This document shows, piece after piece, positions 41,691 to 57,129 of a stretch of DNA of 64,000 nucleotides (positions are counted from its first letter, which is position 1; every line of letters begins with the position of its first letter). The stretch is from Candidatus Saccharicenans subterraneus (GTDB taxonomy: Bacteria; Acidobacteriota; Aminicenantia; Aminicenantales; Saccharicenantaceae). The position numbers and the translations under genes are program-made. Below the pieces are notes generated by a model that did not search any database, was not told the DNA's origin, and saw only the letters and a program-made list of their open reading frames with translations. Location: the NCBI GenBank assembly GCA_003426165.1, contig QUAH01000003.1, forward strand, positions 43,525 through 107,524, given 5' to 3'.

Positions 41691-44165
41691 TCACGGGCAT
41701 CTGGAGCTGTCAAAGGTACGCCCGGCCCGGGGAGCGTCGAACAGGCCGTTACCGTCGACGTCCACAAAAACCGGGTTGGTAATGGCGTAGGGCACCGCGG
41801 CCTCTTCGGGCTCTCCGTTTCTGGCCGGCTGTTGAACCACTGGATAAAGGGACTGCGTACCAATAACTTCAACCAGCAGGTAGGCATCCGAAGTGAGCTC
41901 TATATCAAATTTCCTGTCAAATTTCTCGGTCTCGACGGCTGGGGTCACCACCGGGAAAATAATTTTTCTTTCGCCGTTGACAATGACCCTGACCTCGCTG
42001 ACTTCTATCCAGGGTGCCGATTGAACCCGGATCCAGGCTCTGACCTTTCTGTCACGGTCGGTAAGCAGGTCTCCCGGCTGAAACTTGCGGTTGACCGTGA
42101 ATTCGACCACAGGCCCGTTGGTGACGAAAGACTGCCCCTTCTTCAGGGCCGAGGCCAGGTCTTCCCAGCTCAGGTCCTTGAGTTTTTTCGGAAGCCGCAC
42201 AACCACCCGTGAGTACCCGGGCTCTCCGCCGGCGGCCCCATGAGAATCGGAAGAGCCGACCGCCGTGAAACGGTAACCCTGGCTCAACAGGTTGAGCCAG
42301 TCGGTTACCGCCTGGTCATTACCCCGGTGAAAACTGGCCCCGTTCATGATTTCAATCAGGTCAAAACCCAGTGACAGGTCGCCCTGGGCCGATTCGGCCG
42401 TTTTCTTGTCGAGACCGGCATTTTCAAAATAGCCCAGGTTCCCGGCCCGGGGGTGATTGAGCTGCAGGAGTGAGGTCGGGTTTTTCTGGCGGCAGGAGTT
42501 GAACAGGTCGGCGACTTTTTCAAAGAGGGGAATGATGGCTCCCCTGGTTTTCTCTTCTGGCTTGATTACCACCGGGTAGTTGTTGAAATGGATGTAACTG
42601 TTCAGGGGCGTGACCTCAAACCCCGGGAAGACCCGGAGGTAGTCGCTGAGCCCCAGCCGGTTCAGTTCCGGTTGATAGTCGGTGACGTAGTTGTGGTCAG
42701 TGGCTATGGCCACGTCCAGGTTCTCGGCCACTATCGACCTTAGCCTCTCCGCCACACTCAGTGTCCCGTCAGAGTTGATGGTGTGAAGATGCGGGTCAAT
42801 TGAAATATACCCCTTGAGGTTGACCGCCTTATCCAGGGTGAAGGTAATTTCCCGGCTCTGTCCGGAGAGAACTTCTACCACCTGACGGTCGCTGGTGTAT
42901 AGAGGTCCGTAGGAGGCGACCAGCAGGTAGCGGCCGGCGGCCAGTTCTATTTCCAGGGGCTGGGGATGGAGATAAACCGAATTCTTGAACCTCTCCCAGC
43001 TCCGGCCGCTCTCCACCGGGTTCTCGGGAGCAAAATAGGGTGTCCTGGTTCCCTCCAGGCCGAAGACTGAAATCTTCCCGGGCAGGGGCTTTCCTTTCCT
43101 GTCGACCAGCTTCAGCTTGAGCTGTCCTCCGGCCGGGCGGGTCAGTTCAATCTGGTGGTCGCCGCTTTTACTCACCCGAACGGTCTTTTCGATGATGGCC
43201 GGGAAAAAGTGGGCCCGGACGCGGTAAGTGCCCTCGGGCAGTAAGGCTTGGAGCTTTCCCTCGCCACGAACATAGTGCCTGAAGAAAACCGAGGAGGACA
43301 GGACTTCTTCCACCACCACTTCGGCCGGGGCCTCCTGGCCGTTTTTCAGGTTGATTTCCACCGGCACCACTTCTTTTTTCAGGAGGCCGTAGATTGAGGT
43401 CAGAAGTTCGGAAACATCTTTCCTGACCAGAAGAGCGTAGTTAAGCTCCATGGCCTGACCGGGGAGGAGTTTCTCCGGCAGTTCGGCCGGACGGCTGCCC
43501 AGGTTAACCCAGCCCAGGTACAGGGTCTTTTTCTGATAAACCCGGAAATTCAAGTTGGGGAAATATTCCCGGTGGTATGGGTTGAAATTGTAGAAATGCA
43601 TGGCGTTGAAATAGAGTGAGAGAGACAGCCTGTCGATGGGCTTCTGGCCCTGGTTCCGGAAGGTGCTCTTGATCATTACCTGTCCTTTTTCGGGCGGGAT
43701 GGTGTAGCTGGTGCTGACGGTAGCTTTGGCCCCGTCCCGGCTCTCAAAATCGGCTTTAAGGTCTATGGTCAGGGGAGCAGTTTTTGTTCTGGGGGCGGTG
43801 GTTTTGACCACCGTGTAGCCCGGGTAATAATAATTGAGCCCCGTTCTGACCTGGACCTGGCCGGCCAGGATCTTATTTCCGGCCGGCGAATCAGCCGGGA
43901 CCAGGGTCAGCAGGGCTCCGCGGCCGTCGGGCTGCGGGTAATAATTTATTTCTGGAAAGTCCCGGGGTTCAATGGCGATCAGGTAGAGGTATTTTCCGTC
44001 GTTAACCAGGTAATCTCCGGCTCTGGCCAGGGAAGCCAGTTCGCCGGGAAGTTCATCGGGCCGGCTGACCTTTTTGAGCTCGATGGCAGCTTCCAGCCCT
44101 GAGGCCAGGGCCAGCATGATGAGCATCGTCATCAATAGGGCAGCTATTCTATTAGGCTGATTCAT
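41691..44165 (-). CDS. PHP-domain metallohydrolase (CehA/McbA-like) with large secreted N-terminal region
   Basis: About 824 aa from the ATG at 44165 (GGAGG RBS). Signal peptide. IDPHLHTINSDG and ATDHNY PHP-type His clusters. Confidence 0.6.
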   Translation of the reverse strand: MNQPNRIAALLMTMLIMLALASGLEAAIELKKVSRPDELPGELASLARAGDYLVNDGKYLYLIAIEPRDFPEINYYPQPDGRGALLTLVPADSPAGNKILAGQVQVRTGLNYYYPGYTVVKTTAPRTKTAPLTIDLKADFESRDGAKATVSTSYTIPPEKGQVMIKSTFRNQGQKPIDRLSLSLYFNAMHFYNFNPYHREYFPNLNFRVYQKKTLYLGWVNLGSRPAELPEKLLPGQAMELNYALLVRKDVSELLTSIYGLLKKEVVPVEINLKNGQEAPAEVVVEEVLSSSVFFRHYVRGEGKLQALLPEGTYRVRAHFFPAIIEKTVRVSKSGDHQIELTRPAGGQLKLKLVDRKGKPLPGKISVFGLEGTRTPYFAPENPVESGRSWERFKNSVYLHPQPLEIELAAGRYLLVASYGPLYTSDRQVVEVLSGQSREITFTLDKAVNLKGYISIDPHLHTINSDGTLSVAERLRSIVAENLDVAIATDHNYVTDYQPELNRLGLSDYLRVFPGFEVTPLNSYIHFNNYPVVIKPEEKTRGAIIPLFEKVADLFNSCRQKNPTSLLQLNHPRAGNLGYFENAGLDKKTAESAQGDLSLGFDLIEIMNGASFHRGNDQAVTDWLNLLSQGYRFTAVGSSDSHGAAGGEPGYSRVVVRLPKKLKDLSWEDLASALKKGQSFVTNGPVVEFTVNRKFQPGDLLTDRDRKVRAWIRVQSAPWIEVSEVRVIVNGERKIIFPVVTPAVETEKFDRKFDIELTSDAYLLVEVIGTQSLYPVVQQPARNGEPEEAAVPYAITNPVFVDVDGNGLFDAPRAGRTFDSSRCP

Positions 44166-44256
44166 GATTACCTCCACTAAAATATTTTACATCTTATCAA
44201 AAATCAGCCCGGCCATAAATTCATTTTTGCCGTGGAAATGATAAAATTAGACCGCC

Positions 44257-45231
44257 ATGTTAAATCTGCCGGAAAAGGTCATAAAGATCAGGGACAAGAA
44301 GTTCTTGTTCAGGGTGGAAGATAGCCATCAGGCAGCCGATTATAAAAAATATGAAGACCTCCGCCAGGCGGTCTGGCAGTTTGCCGAAGATCACATGGCT
44401 GGAACCAGGAACCTGCTCTGTGAAAATTTTCTGCACGAGGGGAGCAGCCTCTTCCTGGGCGTGTTTGAAGAGGCTGAGGACGGCGGCTTTACCCTGGATG
44501 GTCAACACCTGGTCGGATTCAGTTACGGCTTTGTCGGTCTGAAGGATAAATCCCTGGGATTTGACCGGCCCTCCAACCTCTGGTTCTATTCCCAGTTCCT
44601 GGGAGTCAGACCGGACCGCTTGAACTACGGACTGGGGATTCTGATCAAGGAGTTTCAACGAGAGGTATTGCTGGAGGTCCTGCATATCGAGACCGTGGTC
44701 TGCACCTACGACCCGCTGACCGCGGTCAACGCTTATCGCAATGTCCGCCACTTCGGGATGAAGGTCCTGGAATACCGGGTGGCCCCTTACGGAGAATACG
44801 GTGGCCGGCTCAACCGCCAGGATGTCCCTTCCGACCGGTTCTTCATGAGCTGGAATCTCAGGGAAAGCTTCTGCCCGCCAGTTCCCGAGCCCGAGGTCGG
44901 AAGTTACCTGGAGCGGTGGCCCCGGACCATCCGGGTGGACTATCGTTGGCTGGAGACCGAAAAAGGTCGGGCTAACCTGGAGGTGGCCTCGGGTCCGATT
45001 CTGGACCTGGAGGAAGAATACCTCCTGGTGCCGGTTCCGGCCGATTTCTACCTGATGTTGAACCTGACCGACGTTGAGGACCCTGAAGTTCGCCGGATAC
45101 CGGTCAACTGGCGCTTCCAGACCAGGGAAGTATTCCTGCACTATTTCCAGCGTGGCTACCGGGTAGTGGATTTTCTTAAGGCGCCAGCTGACCGGAAAAG
45201 GTGCTGCTATCTTTTAAAACGTAACCGATGA
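44257..45231 (+). CDS. hypothetical protein, possible GNAT-fold
   Basis: 324 aa of protein-like composition. The antisense ORF 44260-45141 is Q/V/P-rich and rejected. LNYGLGILIKEF...NAYRNVRHFGMKV loosely resembles GNAT motifs A/B. Confidence 0.35.
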   Translation: MLNLPEKVIKIRDKKFLFRVEDSHQAADYKKYEDLRQAVWQFAEDHMAGTRNLLCENFLHEGSSLFLGVFEEAEDGGFTLDGQHLVGFSYGFVGLKDKSLGFDRPSNLWFYSQFLGVRPDRLNYGLGILIKEFQREVLLEVLHIETVVCTYDPLTAVNAYRNVRHFGMKVLEYRVAPYGEYGGRLNRQDVPSDRFFMSWNLRESFCPPVPEPEVGSYLERWPRTIRVDYRWLETEKGRANLEVASGPILDLEEEYLLVPVPADFYLMLNLTDVEDPEVRRIPVNWRFQTREVFLHYFQRGYRVVDFLKAPADRKRCCYLLKRNR

Positions 45232-45370
45232 ACTGATAACAAAAAAGTTGTGGGGTCCAGACCCCGGCTTTGCTATAATCTGATTCTTTGAGCAAGACCA
45301 TGAAGAACGACCGATGCCGGGAGTCCGAGAGAGCCAATTGGTTCCGACCGGCATGCGGCCTCACGAAAGG

Positions 45371-46657
45371 ATGAACATGCGCTTCACCAATTTTCCAAGC
45401 TCCAAGCTTCTGGCGCCGGTAGCGGTGCTGTTATTACTCCTGCTTTTCCCGGCCTGCCGTCAGCCCAGGGTCGAAGTTTCGGCCACGGACTATGAGCTTC
45501 AGGCGCGGCAAATACACAAGAAAATCGTTACGGTTGATACCCACTGCGACACGGCCATGTGGCTGCTGCGGGGCAACTGGAATCCGGCCGAAAGACACGA
45601 CCCGGCTGCTCCCGGCAGCAGCAGGATTGACCTGCCCCGGATGAAAGAGGGCGGGCTGGACGCCGAGTTTTTTGCCGCCTTCGTCGGGCAGGGGCCCCGG
45701 ACGGAGGAAGGCTATGCCCAGGCCAGGAAGAGGACCGAAGAACTCATCCAGGCGGTCAGGAAAATGGTCGAAGTCAACCGTTCCATCATCGGGCTGGCCC
45801 TCAGCCCGGAAGAAGCTTATAGCCTGAAGAAACAGGGGAAATTGACCGCTTTCCTGGGAATAGAAAACGGCTATGCCATCGGGCGAGACCTAAGCCTGAT
45901 AAAGCATTTCTATGACCTCGGGGTTCGTTATATAACGCTATGTCACTCTTCTGATAACGATATCTGCGATTCTTCGACCGACAGGTCCGAACCTGAAGAC
46001 AAGGGATTGAGCGATTTCGGTCGCCAGGTGGTTCGGGAGTGCAACCGGGTGGGGATGATCGTGGATATCTCCCATGCCTCCGACCGTAGCTTCTATGATG
46101 TTCTTAAGACCAGCCAGGCTCCCATCATCGCCTCTCATTCCTGTGCCCGGGCTGTCTGTGACAATCCCAGGAACCTGACCGACGATATGATCAGGGCCCT
46201 GGCGGCCAGGGGCGGGGTGGTACAGATCTGTTTCCTTTCGGCCTACGTTAAAAAACCGCGGCCCAACCCGGAGAGGGATAAGGCCCTGGCCGAGTTCCGG
46301 GCCAAGTACGGCAACTGGCGGAACATCCAGGACGAGGACGAGCGCCGGAAGATAATGGAAGAGATGCAGGAGCTAAACCGCCGCTACCCGGCTGACCTGG
46401 CCACCGTCCGGGACCTGGTGGACCACATCGACCACGTGGTCAAGCTGGTCGGGGTGGATTACGTGGGTATCGGGACCGATTTTGACGGTGGCGGTGGGGT
46501 CCTCGGTTGCAACGACGTCAGCCAGATGATTAACGTCACAATTGAACTGCTGCGCCGGGGCTACAGCCAGAAGGACATAGAAAAAATCTGGGGTAAAAAT
46601 TTCTTCAGGGTTTTTAACCAGGTCCGTGAAGTGGCCAGAAAATTGAGCCAGTCCTGA
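45371..46657 (+). CDS. M19 family membrane dipeptidase (lipoprotein)
   Basis: 428 aa from the ATG at 45371. Lipobox-like LLLFPAC. HCDT, HSSDND and GTDFDGGGG motifs of renal-dipeptidase-type M19 enzymes. Confidence 0.8.
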   Translation: MNMRFTNFPSSKLLAPVAVLLLLLLFPACRQPRVEVSATDYELQARQIHKKIVTVDTHCDTAMWLLRGNWNPAERHDPAAPGSSRIDLPRMKEGGLDAEFFAAFVGQGPRTEEGYAQARKRTEELIQAVRKMVEVNRSIIGLALSPEEAYSLKKQGKLTAFLGIENGYAIGRDLSLIKHFYDLGVRYITLCHSSDNDICDSSTDRSEPEDKGLSDFGRQVVRECNRVGMIVDISHASDRSFYDVLKTSQAPIIASHSCARAVCDNPRNLTDDMIRALAARGGVVQICFLSAYVKKPRPNPERDKALAEFRAKYGNWRNIQDEDERRKIMEEMQELNRRYPADLATVRDLVDHIDHVVKLVGVDYVGIGTDFDGGGGVLGCNDVSQMINVTIELLRRGYSQKDIEKIWGKNFFRVFNQVREVARKLSQS

Positions 46658-46768: not shown

Positions 46769-48385
46769 ATGGAATTTTCTGTGAGGACTTCCGGGCGGCG
46801 AGCGGGCCTGGTCGTTTCCCTGGCCCTGGCTGCCATGCTGGTCCTGGGCCTGTTCCTGGGTGCTTCCGTCCAGGAAGAGACCCCCAGGCCCAAGCCAGGG
46901 GGAGAACTAAGGGTCAGGCCTTATGGTTCAGCTTTGAATACCGACCTGGACCCGGCCGGAAACGGTTATTCCCTGGTGGTGGGAAATCTTTACGAAGGCC
47001 TGGTCAGGCTGGACCAGAACCTGAACGTCGTTCCCGGCCTGGCTGACTACTGGTCGGTCTCTGAAAACGGCCGGAAAGTTACCTTCTACCTCAGGAAGCA
47101 AGCTGTCTTTCATAATGGACAGGCGGTTACCGCCTCCGATGTCAAGTTTTCTTACCAAAGGCTATTCCAGCTGAAGAGCCGGCCTGTCTTTTATGAGTTT
47201 GCCAGCAGGATCGAGGGGGGAGAGGAATTCTGGCGGGGGGCCGCTTCCGAGGTCAGCGGGCTCAGGGTGGTGGATGATAAGGTCCTGGAGATTTACTGGA
47301 AGCAACCGGGCGTTACCAATTTCTACTTCCTGGCAGCTGGCTTCGCCGGGATTCTCCCGGCCGGCCCGGTTCAGTCTCAGAAAAAAAGATTTTTTGACAG
47401 GCCGGTTGGAGCCGGCCCCTTCAAGTTCGATTACTGGCTGCGGGACAGGCGCCTTAACATCATCGGCGTCAGGCTGGTCAGGAATGATAATTATTTTACC
47501 AGGAAACCGTTCCTGGAAGCGGTCGAGGTCAGTCCTTTTTTCCAGCTGGATGATTTCCTTCAGAACGAAATCCAGGTTATTCCCTACCTGACCTTCAGGA
47601 TATCCAGGGATAAGTACCAGATCCTGGAAAGCAACCTGCTCCAGCTGAATTATCTCTTCTTCAGCTGCCACCTGCCACCCTTTGACCGGCCAGAAGTCCG
47701 CCGGGCCCTGCAGGCCTTTGTTGAAAAAAGACAGCTGGCCGGGCTGGCTTCGACCACGGCCAATTTTTGCCAGCCGATGGACAGCTTTATCCCTCCTTTC
47801 CTTCCCGGTTTTATGCCTGAAGGCGCCTGGCCGGAACAGAGCCTGAGCCAGGTGTTGAAAGTCCTGGAAGAGGCGGGACTTGGCCGGGTGGACCGGCCCC
47901 TGGTGGTCAATGCCTATTTCCAGGTAACCAATAAAGACCTCATCCCGAGCATCTATGAGTTCTTGAGAGAGGAGCTAAGACCGGCCGGGATTAAACTGGA
48001 GCTGAAGTCAAATTATTCGGCCGAGGAGCTGGCCAGGGACAACACCCCGTTCATTTTTTTCCTGGAATGGAGCCCCGAACTGCCCGACCCGGAATTCATT
48101 CTCCGGCCGCTGTTTCATTCCGCCGGTTCTGCGAACCGGGAGCTATTTCATTACCGGAACCCGAAGGTTGACGAACTCCTGGAACTTCAGAAGAACGGCC
48201 TGAGCTTTGAGCGCCGGGTTAACCTCTTCAGGGAAATCGAGAAGATTCTGCAGGCTGATACCCCGGCCCTGCCTCTCTTTTTCCATAAGCAGAGGCTGGC
48301 CTACCAGCCCTATCTTAAGAACCTGAAAGCCCAGCCTCAGGGCCTGCTCTGCCTGAATCTCCGGGATGTCTGGATGGACCGATGA
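46769..48385 (+). CDS. extracellular solute-binding protein, family 5 (peptide/nickel/opine type)
   Basis: 538 aa with a signal peptide and a family-5 SBP fold pattern. No ABC permease or ATPase genes are adjacent. It is translationally coupled to the histidine kinase. Confidence 0.65.
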   Translation: MEFSVRTSGRRAGLVVSLALAAMLVLGLFLGASVQEETPRPKPGGELRVRPYGSALNTDLDPAGNGYSLVVGNLYEGLVRLDQNLNVVPGLADYWSVSENGRKVTFYLRKQAVFHNGQAVTASDVKFSYQRLFQLKSRPVFYEFASRIEGGEEFWRGAASEVSGLRVVDDKVLEIYWKQPGVTNFYFLAAGFAGILPAGPVQSQKKRFFDRPVGAGPFKFDYWLRDRRLNIIGVRLVRNDNYFTRKPFLEAVEVSPFFQLDDFLQNEIQVIPYLTFRISRDKYQILESNLLQLNYLFFSCHLPPFDRPEVRRALQAFVEKRQLAGLASTTANFCQPMDSFIPPFLPGFMPEGAWPEQSLSQVLKVLEEAGLGRVDRPLVVNAYFQVTNKDLIPSIYEFLREELRPAGIKLELKSNYSAEELARDNTPFIFFLEWSPELPDPEFILRPLFHSAGSANRELFHYRNPKVDELLELQKNGLSFERRVNLFREIEKILQADTPALPLFFHKQRLAYQPYLKNLKAQPQGLLCLNLRDVWMDR

Positions 48386-49866
48386 TCAGAATTCCCAGAC
48401 CGCGAATTTCCATCTACGTCCAGCTGGTCTTCTGGACTTCGGTTATCATTCTGCTTTTGATGTTCGGGGTCCTGTACGTAATCCAGACCAGGGAAGTTAA
48501 GGCCATTTACCAGGAGAAGAGGGAGCGCGGCCTGGTTATGGTCAGGTACATTTCCGAGATGAATGTCAGGAGCCTGGTGCTCGGAGACCTGGAGTCCATA
48601 GATGAAAACATTTCGGGATTGATCAGGGAAGACCTGGCCTACGTAATTTTTTACGATGCCGACAGCAAGCCGGTCGTGGTCAGCGAGAGCATTGCCGACA
48701 ATGCCGAGGTGATCAACCAGACCAGCTGTGCCGGCGAGGTGTCCCCAGGCGACGTTTTTTATAACACCATCAGGTTGAACCGTGGCCGGAGCTTTCAGGA
48801 AGTGATGGAGGTCGAGGTCCCGGTTTTCGTTCCCGGTTCCGAGAAAAAGTGGGGTTCGGTTAAAATCGGCTTGAAACTGGAAGACGTTTTCCGCCGGGTC
48901 CAGAGAACCCGGCTGGTGCTCCTGGGCTTCGGGCTGGCTGCCTTTCTGCTGACGGTGCTCGGGGCCAACCTGCTGGCCAGGAGGATTACCCGGCCCATCA
49001 AGAACCTGGTCGAAGGTACACGTCGAATTTCCCGGGGGGATTTTAGCTACCGGATTCCGGTTATCTCCAGGGATGAAATCGGAGACCTGACCCGCAGCTT
49101 CAACCAGATGGCCGAGGAATTGCTCCGGGCCCGGGAGCAGATGGAAGAGGCCAACCGGCGCCTGCTCCAGGCCGAGAAACTGGCCTCCATCGGCCGGCTT
49201 TCGGCCACCATCGCCCACGAAATCCGCAACCCGCTGACCTCGGTTAAGTTAAACATCCAGAAGCTGGCCGAGATATCGACCCTGGATGAGCTGGAGAGAG
49301 AGCACCTGGCCATTGCCCAGGCCGGCATCGAGCAGATCGAGAAGTTCATCAAGGACTTGCTGAGCTACACCCGGGCCTCCAGCCTTCAGAAGGATTATTT
49401 TTCGCTGGCCGAAGTCCTGGACGAATCTCTGAAATTGTTGCAGCCTTCCCTGAAGGAAAAAGAAATCGTGGTGGAAAAGGACTACCAGCCGGACTTGCCG
49501 CCGGCCTACGTCGATGCCGACCGGCTGCGCCAGGTCTTCTTAAATGTTCTTCGCAATGCCTACGAGGCGGTGGACCAGGGAGGCAGGATAGAAATTTCTC
49601 TCCGGATGAACCGGGCAGAAGACGGTTCCTGTTTCGAGGTCCGGATCAGCGACAATGGCTGTGGCATTCAGGAGAAGGACCGGGAAAATATCTTTGAACC
49701 ATTCTTCACCACCAAGAGTTCCGGGGCCGGCCTGGGGCTGGCCAACGCCCGCCGGATCCTGGACCAGCACGGGGGCACCATCCGGGTAGTTGATAAAGAG
49801 GGACGGGGTAGCTGTTTTCTGATCATTCTGCCCTGTCCGGAAAGCAAGCAGGAGGCTCAGACATGA
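48382..49866 (+). CDS. sensor histidine kinase (2 TM, HAMP, HisKA, HATPase)
   Basis: H-box SIGRLSATIAHEIRNPL and GxGxG ATPase motifs. ATGA overlap with the SBP gene. Confidence 0.85.
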   Translation: MIRIPRPRISIYVQLVFWTSVIILLLMFGVLYVIQTREVKAIYQEKRERGLVMVRYISEMNVRSLVLGDLESIDENISGLIREDLAYVIFYDADSKPVVVSESIADNAEVINQTSCAGEVSPGDVFYNTIRLNRGRSFQEVMEVEVPVFVPGSEKKWGSVKIGLKLEDVFRRVQRTRLVLLGFGLAAFLLTVLGANLLARRITRPIKNLVEGTRRISRGDFSYRIPVISRDEIGDLTRSFNQMAEELLRAREQMEEANRRLLQAEKLASIGRLSATIAHEIRNPLTSVKLNIQKLAEISTLDELEREHLAIAQAGIEQIEKFIKDLLSYTRASSLQKDYFSLAEVLDESLKLLQPSLKEKEIVVEKDYQPDLPPAYVDADRLRQVFLNVLRNAYEAVDQGGRIEISLRMNRAEDGSCFEVRISDNGCGIQEKDRENIFEPFFTTKSSGAGLGLANARRILDQHGGTIRVVDKEGRGSCFLIILPCPESKQEAQT

Positions 49867-51227
49867 CCAGAGTTCTGGTAATAGAGGATGATTCCTTGGT
49901 CAGCCGGACCATCGCCACGCATCTCCGGAAAAAAGGCTTCGAGCTGAAGCTGGCCGAGACCGGCGAGGAAGGGTTGAAGCTCTACAAAGATTTTCAACCG
50001 GACTTAACCCTGCTGGACGTCAAGCTGCCCGACATCAATGGCCTGGAGGTGCTCAGGCAGATCAGGCAGACCAGCAAGAACGCGGCCGTGGTGGTGATGA
50101 CCGCCTTTGACGATATGAAAACCACGGTGGAAGCCATCAAGGCCGGGGCCTTTGAATACCTGGTGAAGCCGCTGGACTACCTGGAGCTGGACCTGACCAT
50201 CGACAAGGCCTTCCAGCTCAAGGCGCTGGAAGAAAAGGTCAGCTACCTGATCGAAGAAAAGCAAAAGGAATACCAGATAGACAACATCATCGGTCGGTCT
50301 CCCCAGATGCGGGAGGTCTTCAAGATGATAGGCTCGGTGGCCAATACCAGGACCAACGTCCTGATCCAGGGAGAGAGCGGGACCGGCAAGGAGCTGGTGG
50401 CCAAGGCCATCCATTACAACAGCCCCTTCCGGGATGAGCCCTTCATCGTCATTAACTGCTCGGCCATTTCCGATACCCTGCTGGAGTCAGAGCTCTTCGG
50501 CCATGTCAAGGGAGCTTTTACCGACGCCGTCAGCGAGACCCGCGGCAAGTTTGAGATCGCCGGCAAGGGAACGCTGTTCCTGGATGAAATCGGGGACATC
50601 TCTCCCAACCTCCAGTCCAAGCTCCTCCGGGTCATAGAAACCAGGGATTTCATGAAGGTTGGAGGCGAGAAGATATTGAAGACCGAGGCCAGGATAATTG
50701 CCGCCACCAACCAGAACCTTAAGGAGCTGGTCAGCCAGGGCAAGTTCCGGGAAGACCTGTACTACCGTCTCAAGGTGGTGGAGATAACCCTGCCGCCGCT
50801 CCGGGACAGGCGCGAGGACATTCCCGAGCTGGTGGCCTACCTGCTGGAAAAGATAAACCGGGAGTTGAAGAAAAATGTCAGGAAAGTTCCACCCGAAGTC
50901 ATGGACTATCTGGTCAACCAGCCCTGGAAGGGTAATGTCCGGGAACTGGAGAATGCCCTGACCAGGGCCGTCATCCTGGCCAAGGGAGATGTCATTCTGA
51001 AAGAACACCTGCCTTTTGAGCCGGCCCCTCAGGCCCAGGCCCAGGACAGGTTTCAGCTGCCCAAGGAAATGGTGCCGCTTTGGGAAATAGAGAAAAGGTA
51101 CATCCAGTATGTGCTGGAAGCCACGCGGGGCAGCAAGACCAGGGCCTGCCAGATACTGGAAATCAGCCGGCCAACCCTCGATAAAAAAATCAAGGATTAC
51201 GACCTCAAGGTGGAAACCTCGGAGTGA
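49863..51227 (+). CDS. sigma-54-dependent response regulator (NtrC family: REC, AAA+, HTH)
   Basis: GESGTGKE Walker A, the GAFTDA motif (GAFTGA-type sigma-54 contact), and C-terminal Fis-type HTH. ATGA overlap with the kinase gene. Confidence 0.9.
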   Translation: MTRVLVIEDDSLVSRTIATHLRKKGFELKLAETGEEGLKLYKDFQPDLTLLDVKLPDINGLEVLRQIRQTSKNAAVVVMTAFDDMKTTVEAIKAGAFEYLVKPLDYLELDLTIDKAFQLKALEEKVSYLIEEKQKEYQIDNIIGRSPQMREVFKMIGSVANTRTNVLIQGESGTGKELVAKAIHYNSPFRDEPFIVINCSAISDTLLESELFGHVKGAFTDAVSETRGKFEIAGKGTLFLDEIGDISPNLQSKLLRVIETRDFMKVGGEKILKTEARIIAATNQNLKELVSQGKFREDLYYRLKVVEITLPPLRDRREDIPELVAYLLEKINRELKKNVRKVPPEVMDYLVNQPWKGNVRELENALTRAVILAKGDVILKEHLPFEPAPQAQAQDRFQLPKEMVPLWEIEKRYIQYVLEATRGSKTRACQILEISRPTLDKKIKDYDLKVETSE

Positions 51228-51350
51228 TGGGGTCTGGCCTGCTCCCAGTCCTCCTGTAAAAAAAATTAACAGGCTGCAAAGTTTATTGGGGGAAGGGGCG
51301 ATAGTTCTCGGGGTGGCTGTCCTGGTTTCCCCTGAAATTTTTTCGATTTC

Positions 51351-51366
51351 TGGCACGAAACCTGCT
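51351..51366 (+). promoter_or_regulatory. sigma-54-type promoter TGGCAC-N5-CTGCT upstream of the orphan receiver gene
   Basis: GG at 51352-53 and GC at 51364-65 have the correct 10-nt separation. The predicted TSS is about 13 nt before the ATG at 51390. Confidence 0.45.
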
Positions 51367-51389
51367 CTCTACCGGGAACAGGTAGTATC

Positions 51390-51749
51390 ATGCTGGATAA
51401 GAAAATAGTTATAGTTGATGACGATGAATCCATAAGAAAGACCTTTTTTCTGCTTCTTTCCGATAAATACAATGTTTACCTGGCCGGGGATGCCGGGGAA
51501 GCCCTGGCCAGGTTTGAAAAAGCCCCGGTTGATATGATCATAGCCGATCTCCGGCTTCCCCAGAAAAATGGTCTCCAGATGATTGTCGATTTCAGGCGAT
51601 CGGGTTACCAGGGGCGCATCATACTAATTTCTGCCTGTGCTGACCAGGTCAAGCCGGAGGACCTGGAAAAACTGGGTGTGGACCGGCTGTTCATAAAACC
51701 CCTGGACCTCAAGTTACTGACCGACACCATCGACAGCCTGCTGGCCTGA
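51390..51749 (+). CDS. single-domain response regulator (REC only)
   Basis: 119 aa with the phospho-acceptor pocket VDDDESIR...IIADLRLP. Confidence 0.8.
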   Translation: MLDKKIVIVDDDESIRKTFFLLLSDKYNVYLAGDAGEALARFEKAPVDMIIADLRLPQKNGLQMIVDFRRSGYQGRIILISACADQVKPEDLEKLGVDRLFIKPLDLKLLTDTIDSLLA

Positions 51750-51965
51750 AGCCCGGCCTGGCCCCACCACCGGTCTCAGTTTTTTGGGCAGGCTTTCTGG
51801 CCGGAACCATTATCCAGGCATATGCGAGCTGTAACCCAAGGGCTGCCCGGATTTGTTCCAGGACTTCCCCGGGCCGGCTATTTGAAGCAGTGAAACTGAT
51901 ACTGATCAGTTCAATCTGGCTGCTCGCCCCTTAAATTGTCTGGCCGAAAATGCTAAACTGCCTCC

Positions 51966-52832
51966 ATGAAAGCTGAGTCCGAATGCTATCTCTGCCTCCT
52001 GGGGCAGGTGCTGAGAACGGCCGGCGTCCTGGGGCTGGAGGAACCGGCAGCCAGGGAACTGGCCCGCGAAGCCTGCGCCTTTCTGGCCGGGGCTGATTTT
52101 AACCGGACTCCTCCCGAGATTTCAGAAGACCTTTATTCCCTCCTGGCCCGTCTAACCGGCAATCCTGACCCTTACCGGGGGCTGAAAAAAGAACATATCG
52201 ACCGGGCCCTGAAGCTTTATCCTCAATTGCAAAACCTGGCCAGAACCTCAGCTGACCCGCTTCGGGCCGCCCTGGAGATTTCGCTGGCCGGGAACGTGAT
52301 AGATTTCGGGGCCAATTCCGACGAAGACTGGTTGAAAGACGGGAGATTCTTAACGCCGGGGCCCTTCGGGATCGATGATTACCCGCTCTTGAAAGAAGAC
52401 CTGGAAAAGGCCGAGCGAATCGTCTTCCTGGGCGATAATGCCGGGGAAACAGTCTTTGACCGGCTGTTCATAGAAGTGTCCGGACGAAGGCCAGTATATG
52501 CGGTCCGAGAGGCGCCCATAATCAATGATGCCACCCTGCAAGAAGCGATTGATTCCGGCCTGGCCGGGGTGGCTGACCTGGTCACGAGCGGCTGCCGGGC
52601 GCCGGGAACGGTTTACGGTCAGTGCTCACCCGCCTTCAAAAAAATCCTGGAACAGGCTGACCTGATCATCAGCAAGGGCCAGGGGAATTTTGAATGCCTG
52701 GAACAGGTCAGGGGCCCTTTTTATTTTCTATTGAAGGCCAAGTGCCGCGTGGTCTCCAGGTACCTGGGGGTTCCACAGGGAAGCCTGATCATCATGAGGT
52801 CCAGGAATTATAGCCCCCGTCTGCTGGCCTGA
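51966..52832 (+). CDS. DUF89 (ARMT1-like damage-control phosphatase) family protein
   Basis: 288 aa. N-terminal CxxC and the GDNAGE block are characteristic of DUF89. Confidence 0.6.
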   Translation: MKAESECYLCLLGQVLRTAGVLGLEEPAARELAREACAFLAGADFNRTPPEISEDLYSLLARLTGNPDPYRGLKKEHIDRALKLYPQLQNLARTSADPLRAALEISLAGNVIDFGANSDEDWLKDGRFLTPGPFGIDDYPLLKEDLEKAERIVFLGDNAGETVFDRLFIEVSGRRPVYAVREAPIINDATLQEAIDSGLAGVADLVTSGCRAPGTVYGQCSPAFKKILEQADLIISKGQGNFECLEQVRGPFYFLLKAKCRVVSRYLGVPQGSLIIMRSRNYSPRLLA

Positions 52833-52896
52833 CAGGCTGTCTGTTATCATTTTTCGTAAAAGCAGGGCCTGTGTTTTCTATTTCCAAACCTTATTT

Positions 52897-52915
52897 CCGT
52901 AAAGTATTTTTACGG
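52897..52915 (+). promoter_or_regulatory. palindrome CCGTAAAgtattTTTACGG (candidate enhancer/activator site) about 75 bp upstream of the sigma-54 promoter
   Basis: Perfect 7-bp inverted repeat. A related half-site TTTCGTAAAAG lies at 52851-52861. Confidence 0.3.
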
Positions 52916-52985
52916 TCCTTAAACTTTTTTTATGGTTTATTCGTCCAATTTCCTAACTTTTAAGGGAATTTCAGGTCCAAAATTT

Positions 52986-53001
52986 TGGCACAAATCTTGC
53001 T
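52986..53001 (+). promoter_or_regulatory. consensus sigma-54 promoter TGGCAC-N5-TTGCT
   Basis: Exact -24 TGGCAC and -12 TTGC with canonical spacing, read directly. It sits in a low-GC island and a sigma-54 activator gene lies 1.7 kb upstream. Confidence 0.6.
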
Positions 53002-53095
53002 TATATAAATGGCGGGTAGAGAAAATGGCTGGAAGAAGCAGAGCAACGAGAACAAACGAGAGACAGTTATTATACATAGATACTTTTGCTGGTCC

Positions 53096-53152
53096 GGGGA
53101 GGGAGATATTGAGATTTGACGGGCTGAACAGAAAGTCAATCTCTCCCTCCCC
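53096..53152 (+). repeat. 17-bp stem (1 mismatch) with 23-nt loop: GGGGAGGGAGATATTGA...TCAATCTCTCCCTCCCC
   Basis: Inverted repeat read directly, inside the small transcript. Confidence 0.5.
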
Positions 53153-53254
53153 CTCTATTTATTCGATAGGCGATGAGCGCACCCATAAATTTATAAATGC
53201 CTCCTTTTTGCCCTTCTTTGCCCTTCTTTCCATTCCCCCTTCCTTCAATTAAAC

Positions 53255-53293
53255 AGAGGGGTGCACGGCGGCACCCCTCTCTTTCTTTTTTCT
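53255..53293 (+). terminator. intrinsic terminator: AGAGGGGTGC-acggcg-GCACCCCTCT plus CTTTCTTTTTTCT
   Basis: Perfect 10-bp GC-rich stem and a U-run immediately after the ORF stop. It could also act on the converging NTPase gene. Confidence 0.7.
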
Positions 53294-53351
53294 AAGCTAA
53301 ATCAAAGCAGGAAAGTATTTTTGAGCCTGGTTGGCCCGACTGTATTCCTGT

Positions 53352-53894
53352 TCAAACCGGGCCAAGCAGGGTCTTGATTTTTTCCAGCAACTCGGACTGT
53401 AGTCTCTCCCGGTTGGCCGGGGTAAGCTCGTAGAGCTGCGTGTCCGGGCTGGACTTTATCCGTTCTATGAACGGCGTTCCCCGCCAGGCGATGGTGGCCA
53501 GGAGATGACCCGGAGCCGAAACCAATCGCAGCACGATTTCCCGAAATTTTTCCGAGAGACATTCCATTTTGCCTATCTCGTCTATGACCACCAGCCTGGT
53601 TTCGGGCGCGAAGAACCCGACCGATGCCAGGAAATTTTCAAAGCCGCGAAGGTCCACCCGGTATTTTCCCACCCGGTAAGGTGTCTTGAATTCAACATGG
53701 CTGAGAACGGCCCGCCGTCCGTCGGGGCTCATCAATTCGAAGCCGAGCCTGGTTCCCTTTTCTCTTATTTCCCGGGTAATAAAGCCGGCAATCCCGTTCT
53801 TGTCCGGCAGCCGCTCGAGAAGGCCGGCCACCAGGGTGGTTTTGCCGGAACCGGGCAGCCCCGTCACCAGGATTTTAAGCCCTTTATCGGTCAT
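53352..53894 (-). CDS. THEP1-type nucleoside-triphosphatase (P-loop NTPase)
   Basis: 180 aa with Walker A GLPGSGKTT and Walker B VVIDEIGKME. Overall resembles archaeal/Thermotoga-type NTPase THEP1. GGAGAAG RBS. Confidence 0.6.
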   Translation of the reverse strand: MTDKGLKILVTGLPGSGKTTLVAGLLERLPDKNGIAGFITREIREKGTRLGFELMSPDGRRAVLSHVEFKTPYRVGKYRVDLRGFENFLASVGFFAPETRLVVIDEIGKMECLSEKFREIVLRLVSAPGHLLATIAWRGTPFIERIKSSPDTQLYELTPANRERLQSELLEKIKTLLGPV

Positions 53895-54073
53895 TTAATT
53901 CTTCTTCTCCGGGCTGACTATCTGTCAATCATTAAATGATAGAAATGTCCCCAAGTCAAAGGGCACAAAGCCCCTCGTGAAGGCCAACCGGTTTCACCGA
54001 CAGTTTTGATTGCATGGAGCCCGCAATTTTATTAAACTCAGTCTGCGATAAATATTTGCCGAGGAAAGCTGAC

Positions 54074-55414
54074 ATGGTGAAAAAGGCTCTATTCATGGCA
54101 GTTCTGGTCGGTCTGCTGCTGGCTCTGATGGCCCAGGCGCAGGCTCCGGCTGGCTATTCTGCGGCCGAGTTCGAGAAACGCCGGCTGGCCCTGATGGAGG
54201 CTACCGGAAACGGGCTGATCATTCTATTGGCCAGCCCGGGAAACACGGGGGCCGGGCATTTCCGCCAGGACAACGATTTCTATTATTTTACCGGTTGCGA
54301 GGATGCCAACGCCATCCTGGTCATGATTCCGGCCACCAAGGACAGTTATCTTTTTGTTCCCCAGAAAACCGACCGGGAAAAGATGATGGAGGGCGGGAAC
54401 AGCCTGGATGACCCGGGGGCCAGGGAAAAGCTCAAGCTGAAGGCAATCTACCCGGTCAGCTATTTTGACGAGTTTCTCTCCAGGCTATCCGGTCGCCAGG
54501 ACCAGGTTATCTATTTGAGGCTATCGCCCGAGGACTCGGTTGGAGAAGCCCGTTCGGAAACCGCCCTGTTTCAGGCCCGGCGCGCGCGGAATCCCTACAA
54601 CGCCCAGCTCAGCCTGAATCAGTTCCGGGCCGAGAGGTTTCGCCAGCTTTATCCCGCGGCCGAGCTGAAAGATATCACTCCCCGGATTGATGTCCTGCGG
54701 ATGATTAAGACCCCGGAAGAAATTGCCATCCTAAGGCAAAACGGTCGGATTTCAGCCGAAGCCGTGAAAAGGGCCATGCTGGCTTCGAGGCCGGGAGCCT
54801 TCGAGTACGAACTGGAAGCGGCCGCGGTGGAAGTCCTGCTCAGGAACGGCTGCCGGGGGCCGGCCTATCCGCCCATCATTGGCTCTGGACCGAATACCTG
54901 CATTCTGCATTATGAAAAAAATAACCGGGCCATGCAGGCCGGTGAACTGGTACTGATGGACTTCGGCGGCGACCTCAATTACCTGACGATGGACATTACC
55001 AGGACCTGGCCGGTTTCCGGCAAGTTCAGCGAAGAGCAAAAAAAGGTTTACCGGGCTGTGCTGGAAGTGCAGAAGGCCTGCATTGAGGCTTTTAAGCCGG
55101 GAGTTACCGGTCGGGATGTTCAGGAGTACGTGGCCAGGAGGATGAAAGAAAGGGGAATTGACCCGCTGGGCCTGCGCGGTGGCCTGGGTCACCTGGTGGG
55201 CATGTCCGTGCATGATGTCCAGTCTCCGGAGCTGGTTCTCCAGGAAGGCATGGTCATGGCCATCGAGCCAGGGCTCTATTATCCCGAGAAAAACCTGGGC
55301 ATCAGGATTGAAGACACCGTACTGATAACCAGGGACGGCTGCGAGGTACTGACGGCCGGAGTTCCCAAAGAAATCGATGAAATTGAAGCCCTGCTGGCCA
55401 GGAGAAAGTTCTGA
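54074..55414 (+). CDS. Xaa-Pro aminopeptidase (M24B, PepP-like), secreted
   Basis: 447 aa from the ATG at 54074. Signal peptide. M24 metal-ligand pattern (MDFGG, HLVGMSVHD, EPGLY..IRIED). Confidence 0.8.
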   Translation: MVKKALFMAVLVGLLLALMAQAQAPAGYSAAEFEKRRLALMEATGNGLIILLASPGNTGAGHFRQDNDFYYFTGCEDANAILVMIPATKDSYLFVPQKTDREKMMEGGNSLDDPGAREKLKLKAIYPVSYFDEFLSRLSGRQDQVIYLRLSPEDSVGEARSETALFQARRARNPYNAQLSLNQFRAERFRQLYPAAELKDITPRIDVLRMIKTPEEIAILRQNGRISAEAVKRAMLASRPGAFEYELEAAAVEVLLRNGCRGPAYPPIIGSGPNTCILHYEKNNRAMQAGELVLMDFGGDLNYLTMDITRTWPVSGKFSEEQKKVYRAVLEVQKACIEAFKPGVTGRDVQEYVARRMKERGIDPLGLRGGLGHLVGMSVHDVQSPELVLQEGMVMAIEPGLYYPEKNLGIRIEDTVLITRDGCEVLTAGVPKEIDEIEALLARRKF

Positions 55415-55475: not shown

Positions 55476-56711
55476 ATGTTGCACCAGGCTGGCCTGATTG
55501 CTCCATTCTCTCTGCTCATCTTAATAATTTACCTGTCTGTTGAAGCCGTTCATTTTCGCCGCCGGCTGAAGAAAATTCCCGTGAGGATAGCTGTCGGCGG
55601 CATCAGGGGAAAGTCCAGCATAACCAGGCTGATCGCCTGGGGGCTGCGGCAGGCCGGGTTGAAGGTGATGGCCAAGACTACCGGTTCCAGGCCGGTTCTG
55701 ATCTATCCCGATGGACACGAGCAGGAAATCAGCCGGCGGGGCCGGCCGACCATCCTGGAGCAGAAGAAGCTGGTGGAGGTGGCTGCGGCCGCAGAGTCGG
55801 ATTTCCTGGTCAGCGAGATGATGAGCATTCAGCCCGAATGCCTTGGAGCCGAGGGGCGGCATCTTTTGCGACCACAGGTCCTGGTGCTTAGCAATTTCCG
55901 GCCTGACCATACTGAATTTCTCGGGAGGCACAGGGAGGAGGTGGCCCGGGCCCTGCTGGAAGCGGTTCCTGCGGGCACCATCGTTTTTATTCCCGAAGAA
56001 GAATTCCAGCCCTGGATGGGGAACCTGGCCCGGGAAAAAGGATTTGAGCTGATGGCGGTCAGGAGCAGTATCGAATCTGCCCGCCTGACCGAGATTCTTC
56101 CATACCCGGAATTTGAGCCAAATGCCAGGCTGGCCCTGGCCGTCCTGCAGCATTTTGGCCTGTCGGCCGAGCGAGTCCAGGACGGCTGGTCTGGTTTGAA
56201 CCCAGACCTTGGCCGGCCCAGGGTCTGGCGAGTCAGAGTGTCGGGGAAACATCACTTTCACCTGGTCAGCCTGTTTGCGGCCAACGACCCGGAGTCAAGC
56301 CTGCTGGCCATGGAGCTAATAACCAGAAGGCTGGGCTGGCAGGAAGCCCGTAAAATCGGGCTGCTGAGCCTGCGGGCTGACCGCGGCGACCGGAGCCGGC
56401 AATGGGTTGAGTTCCTTCAGTCGGGGGCGGCAGACTTCCTGGAATCACTGATTCTAATCGGACCGGGAGCCAGGGCAGTGGGCCGAAAACTCAGAAACTG
56501 GTCCCGGAAAACTGGCCGCCCGCTATTAATTCTGCCTGAGAGGGAACCGGAGAAGGGTCTTGAAGAAATAAAAAAACTGGTTGCCGACTGCCAGAAAAGA
56601 CTGCCCGGCGCGGAAGAGAGATGCCTGGTCTTCGGGCTGGGCAACATTGGCGGCTTCGGCCGCAAACTTATAGAATACCTGGAAAGGACCGCCGATGCCG
56701 TCAGAATATAG
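55476..56711 (+). CDS. pgsB: poly-gamma-glutamate synthase, Mur-ligase-like subunit
   Basis: 411 aa. PVRIAVGGIRGKSSITRL...AKTTGS...GRPTILEQKK lines up residue by residue with Bacillus CapB/PgsB (PVRVNINGIRGKSTVTRL...GKTTGT...NIGEQKE). C-terminal VFGLGNIGGFG matches IYGVGNIHGAA. Confidence 0.85.
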   Translation: MLHQAGLIAPFSLLILIIYLSVEAVHFRRRLKKIPVRIAVGGIRGKSSITRLIAWGLRQAGLKVMAKTTGSRPVLIYPDGHEQEISRRGRPTILEQKKLVEVAAAAESDFLVSEMMSIQPECLGAEGRHLLRPQVLVLSNFRPDHTEFLGRHREEVARALLEAVPAGTIVFIPEEEFQPWMGNLAREKGFELMAVRSSIESARLTEILPYPEFEPNARLALAVLQHFGLSAERVQDGWSGLNPDLGRPRVWRVRVSGKHHFHLVSLFAANDPESSLLAMELITRRLGWQEARKIGLLSLRADRGDRSRQWVEFLQSGAADFLESLILIGPGARAVGRKLRNWSRKTGRPLLILPEREPEKGLEEIKKLVADCQKRLPGAEERCLVFGLGNIGGFGRKLIEYLERTADAVRI

Positions 56712-57129
56712 TTCCCTTTTTCTCGGCCTGGTGCTGGCTCTTATTTTCAGCGAGCTAACCGGGATTTCACCCGGGGGACTGATAGTTCCCGGCTATTTCG
56801 CCCTTTACCTGGACCAGCCCTGGCGCCCGCTGGCCACCCTGGCCGTGGCTTTCCTGGCCCTCGGCCTCTACCGCCTGGCCGGCAATTACCTCATCCTTTT
56901 CGGCCGGCGTCGCTTTGTCTTCATGATTCTGGTGGGAGTGGTCCTGGCCCAGCTCTGGAACCTGCTGCTGCCGGGGTCGCTGGCCGAGCCGATTTCGCTC
57001 AGGGTCATTGGCTGGGTGGTGCCCGGGCTCCTGGCTTCCAACCTGGAGAGGCAGAAGATTCTGCCGACCCTGGCTTCCTTGATTCTTGTTTCTGTCTTAA
57101 CTTTTCTTCTGGTCGGGCTCTTTTTCTGA
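56695..57129 (+). CDS. pgsC: poly-gamma-glutamate biosynthesis membrane protein PgsC/CapC
   Basis: 144 aa. LIFSELTGISPGGLIVPGYFALYLDQP, ILFGRRRF and IGWVVPGLLASNLERQ match CapC blocks. 17-nt overlap with pgsB. Confidence 0.8.
   Translation: MPSEYSSLFLGLVLALIFSELTGISPGGLIVPGYFALYLDQPWRPLATLAVAFLALGLYRLAGNYLILFGRRRFVFMILVGVVLAQLWNLLLPGSLAEPISLRVIGWVVPGLLASNLERQKILPTLASLILVSVLTFLLVGLFF

Follow-up and report, generated by a model that had tools for sequence, protein, structure and literature searches.

In a 64-kb stretch of the genome of Candidatus Saccharicenans subterraneus (Aminicenantes/OP8, now placed under Acidobacteriota), hereafter called the window, three overlapping genes encode a solute-binding protein (SBP), a sensor histidine kinase and an NtrC-type sigma-54 activator, and they are followed by a gene for a stand-alone receiver (REC). 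Together they probably constitute a binding-protein-dependent two-component ('three-component') system with a sigma-54 output. SBP-dependent ligand sensing had already been proposed in a first-pass annotation made from the letters of the window, and the comparison of related loci described below supports it: the orthologous SBPs are always tied to the kinase and the activator, are never found beside permeases, and accompany a kinase with a PDC/sCache sensor. Beyond that earlier reading, the sequence comparisons add a candidate enhancer, evidence suggestive of autoregulation in a sister clade, and the recasting of a small open reading frame (ORF) as a probable conserved sigma-54-dependent RNA.

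The gene content and gene order, the lack of permeases, the -24/-12 promoter motifs, a shared palindrome, the PDC fold of the kinase and the nucleotide-level constraint on the RNA, all computed here, point to the following circuit. The exported, transporter-less SBP would bind a periplasmic ligand, most plausibly a short peptide, and would dock on the kinase, the product of the next, overlapping gene, at its single PDC/sCache domain. By phosphotransfer, the kinase would set the phosphorylation state of the NtrC-type activator from the overlapping third gene. The phosphorylated activator would then bind the palindrome GTAAA-N5-TTTAC, located about 68–96 bp upstream of sigma-54 promoters, and activate at least two local units. 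The first is the REC gene, whose product would most likely exert feedback, for instance by competing for the kinase as a phosphate sink. The second would give a transcript of some 280 nt. This is probably a small regulatory RNA, which would carry the signal to distant mRNAs and in which a short ORF is open in this clade.

Organization and conservation of the module

All of the module genes lie on the + strand of the window. The SBP gene (46769–48385; 538 aa, SBP_bac_5 in Pfam) runs into the kinase gene (48382–49866; 494 aa, with the Pfam domains HAMP, HisKA and HATPase_c), which in turn runs into the activator gene (49863–51227; 454 aa, with Response_reg, Sigma54_activat, AAA_lid_14 and HTH_8). 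The SBP/kinase and kinase/activator junctions both read ATGA, and the translationally overlapping operon described at first pass is thus confirmed. The CheY-like REC gene (51390–51749; 119 aa, Response_reg only, PF00072) starts 162 bp after the activator stop codon, in line with the distance of about 160 bp given earlier for this orphan receiver.

We compared the module with seven loci from genome assemblies (L001–L007) and eleven loci obtained via exact-protein look-up (L081–L091). The relatives were viewed up to 10 kb on either side of the SBP gene, and the source genome over the 64-kb window. Conservation of the gene order, which had been put forward as a check on the module, was found throughout: the order SBP, kinase, activator and REC is kept in 17/17 Aminicenantes loci that reach far enough, with L001–L006, L081–L086 and L088–L091 among the loci showing it. 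Across these named loci, identity to the window proteins is 36–77% for the SBP, 47–85% for the kinase and 71–93% for the activator; over all SBP orthologues followed by the kinase and the activator, SBP identity is 36–84%. The stop and start codons of the SBP, kinase and activator genes usually overlap or almost abut; both overlaps recur in L081, L082, L089 and others, and the first overlap in L083 and L088. More distant SBPs, 29–30% identical to that of the window, also adjoin a related kinase in a Binatia metagenome-assembled genome (MAG; L008), in a Methylomirabilia MAG (L009) and on contig L087, where the order is SBP, kinase with a Pfam-recognisable sCache_3_2 domain, and sigma-54 activator.

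One of the loci compared, L001, equals the window gene for gene. This locus, together with L002 and L006, comes from MAGs labelled 'uncultured Eubacteriales' or 'Clostridiales', yet in all three the synteny with Aminicenantes genomes is complete. The probable explanation is a wrong taxonomic label or mis-binning of the contigs.

The binding protein has no transporter partner in the loci compared

The SBP matches PF00496 with 177.5 bits (cut-off 32.4), over profile positions 1–367 of 368, and bears an N-terminal hydrophobic export segment. Two DppB/C-like permeases from a generic locus (L011, L059) served as tblastn queries in a permease control. They gave no Opp/Dpp permease match in the window or in the 18 related loci, whereas the same queries matched in 35–38 of the 80 genome loci of generic SBP_bac_5 proteins, with none in L001–L010. 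The ATPase matches present in some of the related loci belong to a MacB/FtsX-type exporter. The Pfam domains found around the module in the relatives are in agreement with this result. The earlier statement that the SBP lacks ABC partners therefore held, and the concern that the same protein might be found beside permease genes in other genomes was not realized in the 18 related loci.

The SBP might instead chiefly serve an Opp/Dpp-type importer encoded elsewhere, with its adjacency to the kinase reflecting co-regulation, or a double role like that of Vibrio cholerae CBP or Pseudomonas aeruginosa GltB, signalling SBPs that also feed transporters (PMC8050422). The protein is a bona fide SBP_bac_5 member whose closest solved relatives are transport SBPs, and our view covered 64 kb of this genome and at most 10 kb on either side in the relatives. 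However, roughly half of the generic SBP_bac_5 loci have a permease and none was found in these stretches around the module. Furthermore, the SBP orthologues form a distinct and sharply bounded group, in which about 68 clusters are at least 35% identical, followed by a drop to at most 30% (generic peptide binders), and they are always tied to the kinase, often with overlapping codons. We consider such a link to an importer quite improbable, and favor a dedicated signalling SBP.

The closest solved structures to the SBP are those of peptide/dipeptide binders: 8upi (9e-33), DppE and DppA. E437 of the SBP (D in the family consensus) is aligned with D408 of DppA, the residue that, in established structural work on DppA, holds the amino group of the bound peptide. 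A short peptide is our best guess for the ligand, a tentative assignment from sequence to which we would give somewhat less than an even chance. The equivalent of DppA R355 is not conserved in the SBP, in a region that is poorly aligned, and the ligands of SBP_bac_5 members also include nickel, haem, opines and oligosaccharides. Both points weigh against a peptide, and the argument for this ligand is weak.

The kinase carries a PDC-type sensor domain

The window kinase is 100% identical to a protein of Candidatus Saccharicenans subterraneus. It consists of a first transmembrane (TM) helix, a periplasmic PDC/sCache domain (about residues 35–165), a second TM helix, and the HAMP, HisKA and HATPase_c domains. 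Residues 1–207 gave no Pfam match. An AlphaFold model of this N-terminal part, built with 24 homologues, reached a pLDDT of 83.7. It runs from a long TM helix through short helices and a five-stranded sheet to a second TM helix. The periplasmic portion of the model is PDC/sCache-like. Its top structural matches are PDC domains such as those of CitA and DctB, and the matches include LuxQ in complex with LuxP. As modelled, the sensor domain appears to be of the kind that is able to dock an SBP, as in LuxQ and AioS. The catalytic core is nearest to that of ZraS.

On the other hand, the PDC domain could bind a ligand itself, without the SBP, and this possibility counts against SBP-dependent sensing. 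The kinase would then sense directly through its own PDC/sCache pocket, and the SBP would be a ligand-independent accessory protein, like ZraP or CpxP, or would stand outside signalling altogether. The PDC domains of CitA and DctB, the top matches, do bind small ligands themselves, and the system of ZraS, to which the catalytic core is closest, has a periplasmic accessory protein. However, an accessory role needs no complete two-lobed SBP with a retained acidic ligand-anchoring position. The adjacency of SBP and kinase also extends across phyla, including the kinase with the Pfam-recognisable sCache_3_2 domain, and AioS, which acts through AioX, is likewise sCache-like. Direct sensing by the kinase thus seems unlikely, and sensing through the SBP remains the preferred reading.

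The activator and the stand-alone receiver

The activator is composed of PF00072, PF00158 (231 bits), PF25601 and PF02954, and the Asp region of its receiver is conserved among the orthologues. Its sigma-54 contact loop (window 50490–50507, about residues 210–222) reads GAFTDA, not GAFTGA, in 14/14 Aminicenantes orthologues, and GAFTGA in the outgroup activator of L087. GAFTDA is among the variants expected to retain activity in the enhancer-binding proteins of D. vulgaris (Desulfovibrio) (PMC4641369).

In the REC protein, the acidic pocket DDD10–12, D53, S/T82 and K104 are conserved in 14 orthologues, and it is therefore presumably phosphorylatable. Its gene always comes after the activator gene in the related loci. 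Since REC would be induced by the pathway in which it takes part, a feedback element, such as the phosphate sink for the kinase mentioned above, is the most economical role for it. In L002 (14941–15372) and L005 (14967–15329), an ORF of 143 and 120 aa, respectively, containing little beyond a Fis-type HTH_8 domain, lies directly 3' of the REC gene. These ORFs may represent a split regulator that competes for the enhancer, with feedback at the DNA level in those lineages.

Sigma-54 promoters share an upstream palindrome

The REC gene is preceded by a sigma-54 -24/-12 promoter, TGGCACGAAACCTGCT (51351–51366, + strand), with one mismatch to TGGCAC-N5-TTGCW; this is the TGGCAC-N5-CTGC motif reported at first pass, and it stands exactly where it was placed. 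A second sigma-54 promoter downstream, TGGCACAAATCTTGCT (52986–53001, + strand), matches the consensus exactly. At both promoters the distance from the T of TGGCAC to the A of ATG is 39 nt, so that the equal predicted leaders of about 13 nt, noticed earlier for REC and for the ORF at 53025, are real. The REC transcript is predicted to start at about 51376–51377. Within the REC leader (51366–51389), an inverted repeat CTACC-N7-GGTAG extends over the Shine-Dalgarno-like AGGTAG; it is not conserved in the relatives.

By chance, an exact sigma-54 site is expected 0.01 times per window. Sites with at most one mismatch number 3 in the window versus 1.98 expected, and those with at most two mismatches number 16 versus 29.6 expected, with no enrichment in either class. 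The case for the site at 51351 therefore needed the relatives. A third motif in the window, TGGTACTGAAGTTGCT (TGGTAC..., 34224–34239), lies inside the ORF 33839–35812, has no upstream palindrome and is probably due to chance.

In a six-locus alignment, the spacer between the activator and REC genes is 52% identical overall, and TGGCAY-N5-NTGC is invariant within it. An upstream TGTAAA..TT element, which is the palindrome GTAAA-N5-TTTAC, is invariant as well. A -24/-12 motif precedes REC in 17/17 loci reaching that far, and the conservation on which the first-pass proposal depended was thus found. An equivalent of the second promoter is present in L001, L081–L085 and L088–L090.

With at most one mismatch, the palindrome occurs three times in the window versus 0.69 expected, and two of these matches lie upstream of the two promoters. 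The centre of the candidate enhancer GTAAAAAAAATTAAC (upstream activator site (UAS) 1; 51256–51270, + strand) stands 88 bp before the -24 element at REC. UAS 2, GTAAAGTATTTTTAC (52899–52913, + strand), is a perfect palindrome, reading CCGTAAA-N5-TTTACGG with its flanks, and is centred 80 bp upstream of the second -24 element. In the module, the palindrome stands 68–96 bp upstream of both promoters. Over the 18 Aminicenantes loci (393 kb), the palindrome lies 40–160 bp upstream of 30 of the 47 sigma-54-like motifs; in the control of 74 unrelated loci (1.21 Mb), none of 37 such motifs has an upstream palindrome.

The promoter–palindrome pairs are found at three places: before REC, at a downstream "third site" (window 52986) and, in the sister clade only, before the SBP gene. 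In this sister clade, in which the SBP is 36–43% identical to that of the window, a sigma-54 promoter with a perfect palindrome lies 60–190 bp upstream of the SBP gene (L002:9829, L004:9828, L006:9807, L007:7538, L085:9924, L086:9940, L090:9924 and L091:9921), implying positive autoregulation there. Most of these SBP promoters then show a conserved leader motif, GGRAATGTGCATTTY.

Because the palindrome precedes the first gene of the module and travels with the module, it is most simply explained as the site of the module's own activator. The suggestion that one activator controls both promoters is likewise supported, since the 51351 motif is conserved and both promoters share the upstream palindrome. 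Several observations weigh against this assignment. UAS 1 has one mismatch, and the palindrome before REC, which is good in the clade of the window, is degenerate in the sister clade (at least two mismatches). For the SBP operon of the window's clade, neither a sigma-54 nor a sigma-70-type promoter was found; this operon could possibly be transcribed by read-through from the M19 dipeptidase gene upstream. In addition, no rpoN (RpoN box) was seen within the 64-kb window.

A different, distant activator could serve both promoters, their proximity to the module being coincidental. Sigma-54 promoters can respond to remote activators, binding to the palindrome is a prediction here, and motifs with at most one mismatch are not enriched in the window. 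However, the pair of promoter and palindrome accompanies the module in every locus and stands before its first gene in the sister clade, and it is absent from the 1.21 Mb of control loci. We regard a distant activator as highly improbable, and control by the module activator as the better explanation.

Lineages that lack the pyrimidine-rich RNA described below have the third-site pair before other genes, namely a rhodanese/tetrapyrrole-methylase fusion in L005 (19060–20502) and a region leading to a TolC-like outer-membrane efflux protein in L002 (16975–18944). The regulon thus varies between lineages.

The transcript at the third site is probably a small RNA

The second promoter is predicted to drive a sigma-54-dependent transcript of about 280 nt (53011–53292, + strand), which extends from promoter to terminator and holds a 75-codon ORF (53025–53252). 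The unit is self-contained, since a strong intrinsic terminator with a 10-bp stem and a U run (53255–53280) follows and the next gene is convergent. The first-pass annotation had described a small ORF at 53025 behind a sigma-54 promoter. The promoter and the leader stand; from the comparisons below, the unit is probably a regulatory small RNA, possibly with a dual function, rather than an ordinary small protein gene.

From 5' to 3', the transcript contains a hairpin, H1 (53096–53152), an invariant block from 53175, a pyrimidine-rich stretch (53200–53250) and the terminator. The 5' half varies among six genomes belonging to the window's clade, with some 150 nt of it missing in L088. By contrast, hardly any change is seen over the approximately 125 nt that extend from GAGCGCACC (53175) to the end of the terminator. 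For the same pairs of genomes, DNA identity is 61–84% in the neighbouring genes, and identical residues share a codon in only 43–61% of cases. The block is therefore constrained at the nucleotide level, being invariant while its neighbours change codons. Between two hairpins and the terminator stands its pyrimidine-rich core of about 50 nt, for which no pairing is predicted; it contains CCUCCUU, the anti-Shine-Dalgarno core.

Hairpin H1 (GGGGAGGGAGA/UCUCCCUCCCC) shows one compensatory change, in L081. RNAalifold on an alignment of both clades missed the terminator, owing to a one-base offset by MAFFT, and gave a sensible structure on the within-clade alignment. With a single-sequence fold z-score of only -1.9, structure alone is weak evidence for an RNA. 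An Rfam 15 cmscan of 51200–53500 (E up to 1) found no family and returned only a spurious sub-threshold match to mir-122.

The block is shared with ORF-less versions of the transcript, and this sharing, together with the nucleotide invariance, is the basis of the small-RNA reading. In the sister-clade loci L003, L004, L085, L090 and L091, a transcript of about 100 nt, with a like promoter, shares CCUUCCAUAACCCUCCUUCUUU and a covarying terminator, and has no start codon after the predicted start. The regular expression for the core, TTCCWT-N2-CCC..CCTTC plus terminator, matched 13 Aminicenantes loci, a single time in each and invariably on the same strand and downstream of this promoter; it gave no match in 73 other loci.

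Some results weigh against a small RNA that acts by pairing and does not code. When the pyrimidine-rich segment was scored by duplex energy against 120 start regions of the window, the top matches were non-specific, many of them in spurious ORFs, and the genes neighbouring the RNA ranked 21st to 119th. Moreover, each of the six close relatives keeps open an ORF of 37–76 codons that begins about 13 nt past the predicted start. This ORF is annotated as a hypothetical protein in 26 protein clusters, which makes a purely non-coding reading insecure.

These latter observations could mean that 53025–53252 is a plain sigma-54-activated small protein gene, encoding 75 aa with a hydrophobic, invariant C-terminus (ASFLPFFALLSIPPSFN) and having no RNA function. 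Purines precede its ATG, and the frame stays open despite indels, including the 150-nt deletion in L088, with a probability by shuffling of 0.02–0.045 for each of the five long copies. The invariant C-terminus is shared by all 20 of the 26 clusters that were aligned. Nevertheless, about 25 consecutive codons are free of synonymous changes over six genomes, whereas half of the conserved residues of the neighbouring genes changed codon. Substitutions in the variable half of the ORF are distributed flatly over codon positions 1, 2 and 3 (218:209:245), as compared to 181:89:391 for REC. The codon-position and shuffle tests, taken together, are mixed. The pyrimidine core and terminator also occur in the sister-clade loci without the ORF, and in L003 the conserved AUACAUAGAU motif falls in a different reading frame. 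Finally, gene callers place short ORFs on either strand over the RNA locus: on the - strand in L081 (16210–16440), L088 (13675–13836) and L089 (15404–15562), and on the + strand in L083 (16069–16293). In the source genome, the locus is annotated as a 47-aa hypothetical protein, OP8BY_1627. A plain protein gene seems doubtful on balance, and a small RNA, with or without a coding function, is preferred.

In its full form, our proposal is that the main output of the module is a new Aminicenantes-specific family of regulatory RNAs, whose CCUCCUU would mask ribosome-binding sites, which would also encode a translated short peptide with an invariant hydrophobic tail in the Saccharicenans clade, as dual-function RNAs, and which would link this control to a periplasmic peptide. 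We advance this composite view tentatively, at only slightly below even chances.

Genomic setting

Directly 5' of the SBP gene, an M19 membrane dipeptidase with a lipoprotein-like signal sequence (LLLFPAC) is encoded at 45314–46657 (+ strand; PF01244, E 1e-110). It occupies this position in all Aminicenantes loci examined except L002 and L005, and its gene is possibly co-transcribed with the SBP operon. Within 44257–46657, a conserved 324-aa protein with no Pfam match stands beside this exported dipeptidase. Downstream of the module, 54014–55414 encodes an exported M24 Xaa-Pro aminopeptidase with a signal peptide. The genes for the 324-aa protein and for the M19 and M24 enzymes are syntenic with the module in most Aminicenantes loci, which suggests a peptide-related neighbourhood and adds a hint towards a peptide ligand.

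An ARMT1-like (DUF89) gene (51966–52832, + strand; PF01937) lies between REC and the second promoter. It is found at this position in L001, L081–L084 and L088, and is absent there in L089 and in the sister clade. It is a neighbour in the closer clade only and probably stands outside the core module. Further downstream, a Mur_ligase_M protein is followed by a 144-aa ORF (55476–57129), whose counterpart in syntenic loci is Caps_synth_CapC; the two look like a CapB/CapC-type pair for poly-gamma-glutamate synthesis. On the opposite side (41691–44177, - strand), a protein of 828 aa that has a signal peptide but matches no Pfam family is conserved in place in several relatives, at 43–74% identity.

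Relation to known systems

Functionally, the module resembles AioX-AioS-AioR, the arsenite-responsive system of Agrobacterium and others, in which three adjacent genes likewise encode a dedicated SBP, an sCache-like kinase and an NtrC-type sigma-54 activator (PMC8050422). The two SBPs are, however, unrelated in sequence family: AioX, an arsenite binder, is a member of the phosphonate-binding family PF12974, whereas the SBP of the module is a peptide-like SBP_bac_5 protein. In addition, AioR targets an oxidase operon, while the predicted targets of the module are a stand-alone receiver and a small RNA.

The LuxP-LuxQ-(LuxU)-LuxO-Qrr system of Vibrio is similar in that an SBP docks on a periplasmic PAS/PDC-type domain of the kinase, and LuxQ is among the structural matches to the module kinase. 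LuxO, like the module activator, is a sigma-54 activator, and it drives small regulatory RNAs (PMC10162802, PMC4878744). LuxQ differs in being a hybrid kinase with tandem PDC domains and a phosphorelay through LuxU, while the module kinase has a single PDC domain and presumably transfers phosphate directly. LuxP belongs to a different SBP family, and the Qrr RNAs have no sequence relation to the RNA of the module.

Among the pairs of SBP and sensor kinase tabulated in a 2021 review (PMC8050422), CBP, the partner of ChiS in V. cholerae, is the sole SBP_bac_5 member. CBP binds chitin oligosaccharides and is also the SBP of an ABC transporter, unlike the SBP of the module, which lacks a transporter. 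ChiS is a non-canonical DNA-binding hybrid kinase that works without a sigma-54 activator, whereas the module has one.

GlrK-GlrR-GlmY and CbrA-CbrB-CrcZ are comparable to the module in their output: in each, a classical kinase and an NtrC-type regulator act mainly through a small RNA, whose -24/-12 promoter is preceded by activator sites (PMC7073468, PMC8871633). Neither GlrK-GlrR nor CbrA-CbrB works with a binding protein. GlmY and CrcZ are protein decoys that act via defined motifs, whereas the pyrimidine-rich, anti-Shine-Dalgarno-like stretch of the module RNA suggests pairing with ribosome-binding sites. ZraP-ZraS-ZraR shares with the module the closest catalytic core (ZraS), a periplasmic third component and a sigma-54 activator. 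However, ZraP is a small helical chaperone/repressor and not a two-lobed SBP, and the sensor domain of ZraS and the regulon of ZraR differ from those of the module. By sequence family, the module belongs to none of these systems. The circuit design is known, while this family of modules and its RNA output are new.

Implications

Aminicenantes are uncultured anaerobes that abound in sediments, aquifers and digesters. To our knowledge, almost nothing has been established about gene regulation in this group, and we know of no regulatory RNA described for the phylum. The locus presented here comprises a complete circuit, with a candidate sensor, a transducer, an activator, a candidate DNA site and two or three target promoters. 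Few binding proteins are on record as signalling through kinases, and the dedicated SBP_bac_5 protein of the locus adds to them. Its third site supplies a candidate new small RNA under unusually strong sequence constraint. Two names used at this locus, 'ABC transporter substrate-binding protein' and 'hypothetical protein', probably mislead. Current understanding is not overturned; the value of the finding lies in this correction of the annotation and in a defined entry point, as the motif GTAAA-N5-TTTAC permits genome-wide prediction of the regulon in any Aminicenantes assembly. If the proposed circuit is true, it would tie the availability of periplasmic peptide to post-transcriptional control in these bacteria.

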